A stretch of 64,000 nt of DNA, taken from assembly GCF_002854065.1 (NCBI RefSeq), contig NZ_CP024147.1, one strand, 5' to 3'. The notes under the pieces were generated by a model. The model was not told the origin of the DNA, did not search any database, and saw nothing but the letters and a program-made list of their open reading frames with translations. Below are positions 46,506 to 46,912 of this stretch, one piece after another. Positions within the stretch are counted from its first letter, which is position 1. Each line of letters begins with the position of its first letter. Position numbers and translations under genes: made by a program. This stretch comes from Escherichia coli (GTDB lineage: Bacteria > Pseudomonadota > Gammaproteobacteria > Enterobacterales > Enterobacteriaceae).

Positions 46506-46912
46506 ACCCTTCGTAGGCAGCATCCGGCAGTCGGCGCATAATGCCTGATGCGACGCTTGTCGCGTCTTATCATGCCTACAGGTTTGTGCCGAACCGTAGG
46601 CCGGATAAGGCGTTCACGCCGCATCCGGCAGTCGGCACACAATGCCTGATGCGACGCTTGACGCGTCTTATCATGCCTACAAATCTGTGCCGAACCGTAG
46701 GCCGGATAAGGCGTTTACGCCGCATCCGGCAGTTGGCGCACAATGCCTGATGCGACGCTTGTCGCGTCTTATCATGCCTACAAGTCTGTGCCGAACCGTA
46801 GGCCGGATAAGGCGTTCACGCCGCATCCGGCAGTTGGCGCACAATGCCTGATGCGACGCTGGACGCGTCTTATCATGCCTACAAGTCTGTGCCGAACCGT
46901 AGGCCGCATCCG
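46506..46912. repeat. BIME/REP tandem array: four units of about 101 bp
   Basis: Units recur at about 46541, 46642, 46743 and 46844 (tgcctgatgcgacgcttgtcgcgtcttatcatgcctaca ... gtaggccggataaggcgttcacgccgcatccggca). Four overlapping track ORFs with near-identical peptides are repeat artefacts. Confidence 0.8.

Follow-up and report, generated by a model that had tools for sequence, protein, structure and literature searches.

BIMEs fall into classes that differ in their palindromic units, linkers and copy number. BIME-2 elements combine Z2 and Y units in tandem copies that are joined by short linkers and vary in number between strains, and their linkers differ between loci while the copies within one locus are alike; BIME-1 elements, in contrast, are single copies of Z1 and Y separated by a long L linker, in which an IHF site is often present (PMC3333891). 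BIME-2 elements are enriched in gyrase cleavage sites, which do not depend on transcription and lie mainly in Y units (PMC6379681), and insertion of IS1397 into such palindromic units is known experimentally (PMC1525189). REP325, the BIME-2 between yjdM and yjdN (naRNA1-6, type locus of Rfam RF02564), consists of six Y-l-Z2 repeats (PMC4550694) and has been counted among the longest REP elements in K-12. According to a 2026 preprint from a group to which the senior author of the first naRNA4 study belongs, REP325 is a partly Rho-dependent terminator and a stabiliser of upstream mRNA; genome-wide, REPs between convergent genes went with higher expression of both genes, nearly 40% of convergent-gene REPs (78 REPs) lay within predicted bidirectional terminators, and REP effects were strongly context-dependent, half-lives not being uniformly changed (bioRxiv 10.64898/2026.03.23.713779). 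Finally, K-12 has an element at yjjV that is listed in EcoCyc as REP352a-h and overlaps yjjV by 2 nt (bioRxiv 10.1101/2024.07.17.603846). No repeat features are listed in the stretches of the NC_000913.3 record that we examined, and the name REP352 is therefore taken from the preprint citing EcoCyc.

In this study, we analyzed a 64,000-nt stretch of Escherichia coli DNA (RefSeq assembly GCF_002854065.1, contig NZ_CP024147.1; hereafter the window), which contains a repeat array between the convergent genes yjjV and yjjW. We are highly confident that this is a non-coding BIME-2 array, orthologous to K-12 REP352, that fills the 3' intergenic space of the two genes. Since the K-12 orthologue is present in EcoCyc, the yjjV-yjjW array is already catalogued, and the new descriptive points are modest: an allelic series of 0 to 11 units, a locus-private linker, shortened edge Y units and alternative yjjV 3' ends. 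The discovery value is small, and the main use of these observations lies in annotation.

Structure of the yjjV-yjjW array

The two convergent genes have their stop codons 415 bp apart, and the array takes up this gap:

45720-46502, plus strand: yjjV, TatD-family metal-dependent hydrolase, the upstream convergent gene; the array starts 10 nt past its stop codon
46513-46914: whole BIME-2 array (K-12 REP352 orthologue), built as short Y, then linker, Z2, linker and Y three times over, then linker, Z2, linker and short Y
46918-47781, minus strand: yjjW, glycyl-radical enzyme activase, the opposite convergent gene

The first-pass annotation of this DNA, made from the letters alone, had described four near-identical units with a period of roughly 101 bp. 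This was borne out by Tandem Repeats Finder (TRF), which returned a single array at 46520-46906 (period 101, 3.8 copies, 95% matches, no indels, score 697), and by a repeat finder that placed the copies at spacings of exactly 101, 101 and 101 nt. The dot-plot periodicity that the annotation had proposed as a check was likewise recovered in a lag scan of 46450-46950, where identity reached 0.78 at lag 101 and 0.72 at lag 202, versus about 0.33 at all other lags. Pairwise differences between units amounted to 2-7 positions. The unit starts that had been given (46541, 46642, 46743 and 46844) proved to be ATG triplets, each 2 nt upstream of a Z2 unit (46543, 46644, 46745 and 46846). The count of four holds for Z2; it does not hold for Y, of which only three copies are complete and both edge copies lack the central 18 nt.

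Each 101-bp unit consists of a 34-nt Y, a 14-nt linker, a 37-nt Z2 in the opposite orientation and a 16-nt linker. On the plus strand, Y reads GTAGGCCGGATAAGGCGTT(C/T)ACGCCGCATCCGGC. The components are as follows:

46513-46528, minus strand: left edge Y without the central 18 nt (GTAGGCaGCATCCGGC); no self-folding (0 kcal/mol)
46543-46579, plus strand: Z2 of unit 1, GCCTGATGCGACGC…GCGTCTTATCATGCCTAC; RNA hairpin of -14.7 kcal/mol, z -4.0; 35 of 37 positions as in the REP325 Z2 (by eye)
46596-46629, minus strand: Y of unit 1, consensus GCCGGATGCGGCGTGAACGCCTTATCCGGCCTAC on the minus strand; the plus strand shows the GTAG end
46644-46680, plus strand: Z2 of unit 2
46697-46730, minus strand: Y of unit 2, with TTTAC as loop variant; same sequence as the REP325 Y
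46745-46781, plus strand: Z2 of unit 3
46798-46831, minus strand: Y of unit 3
46846-46882, plus strand: Z2 of unit 4, loop variant CTGGACG
46899-46914, minus strand: right edge Y, likewise short of 18 central nt (GTAGGCCGCATCCGGC); its end is 3 nt away from the stop codon of yjjW
46630-46643, also 46529-46542, 46731-46744 and 46832-46845: 14-nt linker AGTYGGCRCAYAAT, joining the GTAG-distal ends of Y and Z2
46580-46595 (AGGTTTGTGCCGAACC), also 46681-46696, 46782-46797 and 46883-46898 (AARTCTGTGCCGAACC): 16-nt linker, leading from the CTAC end of Z2 to the GTAG end of the next Y; general form AAGTCTGTGCCGAACC with variants

Unit types were named by comparison with REP325. At most 1 nt separates the Y units from those of REP325, and Z2 agrees with its REP325 counterpart at 35 of 37 positions (by eye), in agreement with the BIME/REP label given at first pass. 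The BIME-2 identity of the array is read directly from its sequence: five Y units, three complete and two shortened, show GTAG on the plus strand and alternate with four opposite Z2 units that show CTAC; the copies are in tandem with linkers of only 14 and 16 nt; and the position is extragenic, between the yjjV stop at 46502 and the yjjW stop at 46918 (in K-12-type alleles the array overlaps the yjjV stop codon by 2 nt). Strain-variable copy number, described below, completes the picture. The 18-nt segment absent from the edge Y units lies between two short GCC repeats, and the shortened right edge Y was present in all multi-unit alleles whose right end was read. All four Z2 stems in the window (46573, 46674, 46775 and 46876) carry ATCATGCC, versus ATCAGGCC in REP325 and in some units of other alleles. 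This change is an outer-stem mismatch that has spread to every unit of the window allele, and the Z2 hairpins are weakened by it.

Comparison with K-12 REP352 and REP325

The best match to the window was strain STN0717-20, with 100% identity over 1401 bases around the array. K-12 MG1655 has a yjjV-yjjW gap of 419 bp, in which TRF found a 101-bp array (4.1 copies, 95% matches). Locus, 101-bp unit, four-unit number and shortened last Y are all shared between REP352 and the window array, at 94.4% identity across 1.4 kb, flanks included. However, the unit variants differ (ABCD in the window, ECFG in K-12), and so does the left edge. The first Y of REP352 is complete and provides the yjjV stop (TAG within GTAG), so that the protein ends in …NVP, whereas yjjV of the window ends in …SVSG and is followed by a small GGGTAGTTTACCC hairpin and the shortened first Y.

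The 3' end of yjjV varies with the array edge (window 46480-46530; compared stretches L001, 9250-9300, and L011, 6740-6800). An …NVP end or a close variant, with the TAG in a complete first Y, was seen in K-12, in phylogroup-B2-like strains and in cryptic-clade Escherichia, and the GTDB representative of E. coli has a third form. Because outgroup lineages have the K-12-type end, it looks ancestral in these sequence comparisons.

REP325 likewise alternates near-identical Y and Z2 units, but with a period of 100 instead of 101 and 5.8 instead of 3.8 tandem copies. Like the window array, REP325 matches the naRNA4 model with scores that exceed the gathering threshold. Its linkers are of 13 nt (AACGGTGCCGACT) and 17 nt (AAATTCCCGCACCCTCC), in contrast with the 14-nt and 16-nt linkers of the window array. 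By eye, the 13-nt linker in reverse complement looks similar to the 14-nt one. In addition, REP325 lies between tandem genes of one operon, whereas the window array separates convergent genes.

Variation in unit number among strains

A 600-nt query containing nothing but the two flanks was run against all complete E. coli genomes; the gap length was derived from the span of the joined matches, and units were counted in an evenly spaced sample of 59 genomes:

0 units: gap of 30 bp, 3 of 59 genomes
1 unit: gap of 112 bp, 18 of 59 genomes
2 units: gap of 213 bp, 9 of 59 genomes
3 units: gap of 314 bp, 4 of 59 genomes
4 units: gap of about 415 bp, 7 of 59 genomes
5 units: gap of about 516 bp, 18 of 59 genomes

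Together with the 11 units of Escherichia sp. MOD1-EC7003, this agrees with the earlier remark that copy number in such arrays often varies between strains. Alleles with no unit or a single one are common, so a long array is clearly dispensable.

Six listed genomes had 600-nt flanks 99.8-100% identical to those of the window; two of them carried four units and four carried five, which shows that unit number changes on very short evolutionary timescales. Unit typing gave ABCD for the window, ABCMD for M217 (600-nt flanks identical to the window) and AMD for Combat13F7. Thus, close relatives differ by whole in-register units, which is the pattern expected of unequal recombination or slippage. 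In strain 4621, which has no unit, the allele consists of one complete Y, whose left part equals the first Y of a PMV-1-type array and whose right part (…GCC|ACATCCGGCATG) equals the shortened last Y of the same array; this Y is thus the first and last Y joined, a collapse product. Units would most likely be gained and lost by unequal homologous recombination or replication slippage between units, possibly with help from the REP-associated tyrosine transposase TnpA-REP.

To see where else the unit occurs, one genome per species (100,044 species) was scanned with a 37-nt pattern of the Y-linker-Z2 junction that had four degenerate linker positions. It was found in four stretches, all of them yjjV-yjjW and all in representative genomes of Escherichia:

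E. coli representative, yjjV-yjjW: 1 unit
Escherichia sp. E1V33, yjjV-yjjW: 2 units
E. whittamii, yjjV-yjjW: 3.9 copies
Escherichia sp. MOD1-EC7003, yjjV-yjjW: 10.9 copies, that is 11 units and about 22 palindromic units

Taken singly, Y and Z2 units are dispersed, with a median of 29 matching places per genome. Since the junction pattern was found solely at yjjV-yjjW, the linker variant appears to be private to this locus and the array to have grown in place, which fits the published remark that BIME-2 linkers are locus-specific. Its presence in four Escherichia representatives places the array before the split of these lineages: it was already present at yjjV-yjjW when E. coli parted from E. 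whittamii and the cryptic clades, and it has been retained there. The array of Escherichia sp. MOD1-EC7003 spans 1094 bp (3258-4351 of stretch L014), nearly twice the length of REP325.

Insertion was also observed at this locus. In strain L1PEag1, a copy of IS1397 (IS3 family) lies between yjjV and yjjW (2574-3922 of stretch L010), in the loop of a single Y (GTAGGCCGGACAAGGCGTT | IS | GTTTACGCCGCATCCGGCA) and with a GTT target duplication; the claim that such arrays are targets for IS insertion thus has an example at yjjV-yjjW itself.

Open reading frames, folding and transcription signals

Four staggered open reading frames (ORFs) on the plus strand run through the array:

46541-46750, plus strand, frame 2
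46642-46851, plus strand, frame 1
46743-47087, plus strand, frame 3
46844-47047, plus strand, frame 2

They have 67-114 codons each and share the peptide start MPDATL[VD]ASYHAY[KR]…, and a comparable ladder exists on the minus strand. Because 101 is not a multiple of 3 (101 mod 3 = 2), the frames run 2, 1, 3, 2, so that one DNA repeat is read in all three frames. A Pfam scan of three array ORFs found nothing above noise, there is no purine-rich Shine-Dalgarno motif upstream of the ORFs, and no CDS is annotated between yjjV and yjjW in the RefSeq records examined. The first-pass annotation had called these ORFs phantom, and given the frames, the absence of a Pfam match and the lack of annotation in those records we agree: the ladder is a by-product of the repeat.

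The Rfam model RF02564 (naRNA4) matched the plus strand three times, each match covering Y, linker and Z2:

46599-46677, plus strand: naRNA4 match
46700-46778, plus strand: naRNA4 match
46801-46879, plus strand: naRNA4 match

Their scores (78.9, 74.7 and 74.2 bits) exceed the gathering score of 59.5. Since the model amounts to one Y-linker-Z2 unit, the matches restate BIME-2 membership, and they are read as no evidence for a small-RNA gene as far as sequence comparison goes. REP/BIME arrays thus yield both spurious ORF runs and small-RNA matches, and gene callers and scanners should mask them.

Complete palindromic units fold into a stable hairpin on either strand. As RNA, Z2 gave -14.7 (plus strand) and -13.8 (minus strand) kcal/mol, and Y gave -19.5 (plus strand, z -4.4) and -21.3 (minus strand, z -4.9) kcal/mol; single units had z-scores of -4.0 to -4.9, and no shuffled sequence folded as well. 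As DNA, Y folded at -12.1 kcal/mol. The right edge Y forms a weak 4-bp stem (-6.5 kcal/mol). A doublet of Y, linker and Z2 (46596-46680) is predicted to fold into one long hairpin of -43.1 (plus) or -45.4 (minus) kcal/mol, with z of about -5.5, and the whole-array RNA reached z -7.8 (plus strand) and -8.8 (minus strand). Whole-array folds contained long-range pairing between adjacent units; because such pairings are probably irrelevant during transcription, we relied on the single-unit folds.

A promoter/terminator scan found no intrinsic terminator (a G+C stem followed by a T-run) within the array. The lone promoter-like match is a weak sigma-70-like one at 46514-46542 (TAGGCA, 17 nt, CATAAT; 9 of 12 positions). 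It is confined to the first unit, where the linker reads CATAAT; in the other units it reads CACAAT. With no intrinsic terminator and only this 9/12 match, an autonomous transcription unit was not supported.

Alternative interpretations

Four other interpretations of the array were considered, two of which concern the type of element. The first-pass text stated that such arrays bind IHF, which would imply a BIME-1/RIB/RIP-type element. The window array does resemble BIME-1 in containing Y units, in being extragenic and in lying at the 3' ends of transcription units. However, it is the long L linker between Z1 and Y of BIME-1, an element that occurs as single copies, to which IHF binds (PMC3333891), whereas the partners here are of Z2 type, the linkers are of 14 and 16 nt and the copies number four. 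Moreover, the IHF consensus WATCARNNNNTTR had no match within 46503-46917 on either strand with up to one mismatch. In view of these negative searches, the BIME-1 reading is rejected as extremely improbable, and the remark on IHF does not apply to this array. It is less improbable, but still quite unlikely, that the array belongs to an active, mobile REPIN population built and resized by TnpA-REP/RAYT and not by ordinary recombination. Each unit is indeed an inverted REP doublet of about 85 nt that folds into a long hairpin (-43 to -45 kcal/mol), and TnpA-REP cleaves and recombines BIMEs in vitro, its discoverers having proposed it as the driver of changes in copy number (PMC3333891). On the other hand, a REPIN is a dispersed doublet, whereas the unit with its linker occurs at one locus and is amplified in tandem; the restriction of the junction pattern to yjjV-yjjW in four Escherichia representatives points to growth in place, changes by whole in-register units are what homologous recombination or slippage would leave, and K-12 REP352 is not classed as a RAYT-associated REPIN by RAREFAN.

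The remaining two would make the array a set of genes. If the units were naRNA4-like small RNA genes, their products would bind HU, bridge REP cruciforms and condense the chromosome, as proposed for REP325. Three plus-strand RF02564 matches at 74-79 bits argue for this, as does the fact that naRNA4 has the same Y and Z2 hairpins; the chromosome-condensing model is that of Qian et al. 2015 (PMC4550694). Yet the Rfam model is in effect one BIME-2 unit, which also matches the minus strand of the array (52-58 bits) and two other REP elements in the window; the linker is unlike that of REP325, and the promoter scan found no convincing promoter. For REP325 itself, deletion and over-expression left nucleoid volume unchanged, and REP-REP contacts were not seen (bioRxiv 10.64898/2026.03.23.713779). 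We therefore regard small RNA genes as very unlikely. That the staggered ORFs encode genuine small proteins has hardly any probability at all: four ATG-started ORFs with a near-identical N-terminal peptide are suggestive at first sight, but a reading frame is not kept between copies, no Shine-Dalgarno motif, Pfam family or annotated CDS was found as described above, the ORFs come and go with unit number (zero-unit alleles have none), and two of them extend antisense into yjjW. A non-coding BIME-2 array, orthologous to REP352, is thus the reading that we retain.

Possible functions of the array

By analogy with other REP elements, read-out transcripts of yjjU-yjjV (plus strand) and yjjI-yjjW (minus strand) would end in 3' UTRs with runs of REP hairpins. 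These Y and Z2 structures may block or slow 3'-to-5' exonucleases, and they may promote partial, largely Rho-dependent termination, which would limit read-through into the opposing gene. If so, the BIME-2 array would buffer transcript ends in both directions where the two genes converge. Its DNA might also be bound and cleaved preferentially by DNA gyrase, with most cuts in the Y units, as in other BIME-2 elements. In the supplement text examined from PMC3333891, PMC6379681 and bioRxiv 10.64898/2026.03.23.713779, no REP, gyrase or terminator data specific to yjjV-yjjW were found; either gene occurred there only once, as yjjW in a table of gene-level differential expression in the last of these.

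With regard to translation, REP-mediated ribosome stalling was reportedly described by Liang, Rudd and Deutscher in 2015 for REPs within 15 nt of a stop codon. The yjjV stop codon of K-12-type alleles already contains the start of the first Y hairpin, which hence lies within this limit. In the window allele, the first strong hairpin lies 40 nt past the yjjV stop, and REP-mediated stalling is therefore not expected there.

A further possibility, which we consider unlikely though worth stating, is that unit number (0-11) serves as a heritable, strain-specific dial, the polymorphism being functional and not neutral. If this were true, unit number and the overlap of the first Y with the yjjV stop could set the survival of yjjU-yjjV and yjjI-yjjW transcripts and their mutual read-through. 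Tuning of convergent-gene expression by REP number has been proposed in general terms by the 2026 preprint (bioRxiv 10.64898/2026.03.23.713779), and the natural allele series at yjjV-yjjW (0, 1, 2, 3, 4, 5 and 11 units, with alternative yjjV stop junctions) is well suited for testing it.

Other REP elements in the window

Three further places in the window carry REP-type sequence. The REP element at 38748-38833 contains a Z1-like palindromic unit, matches the naRNA4 model at 73 bits and adjoins three tandem tRNA genes (38289-38607), which by position correspond to the K-12 tRNA-Leu genes leuV, leuP and leuQ beside rsmC. A pair of Z2 and Y lies within 59916-60062 and matches the naRNA4 model at 69 bits over 59916-59994, and 4274-4307 holds a perfect Y unit without a partner.
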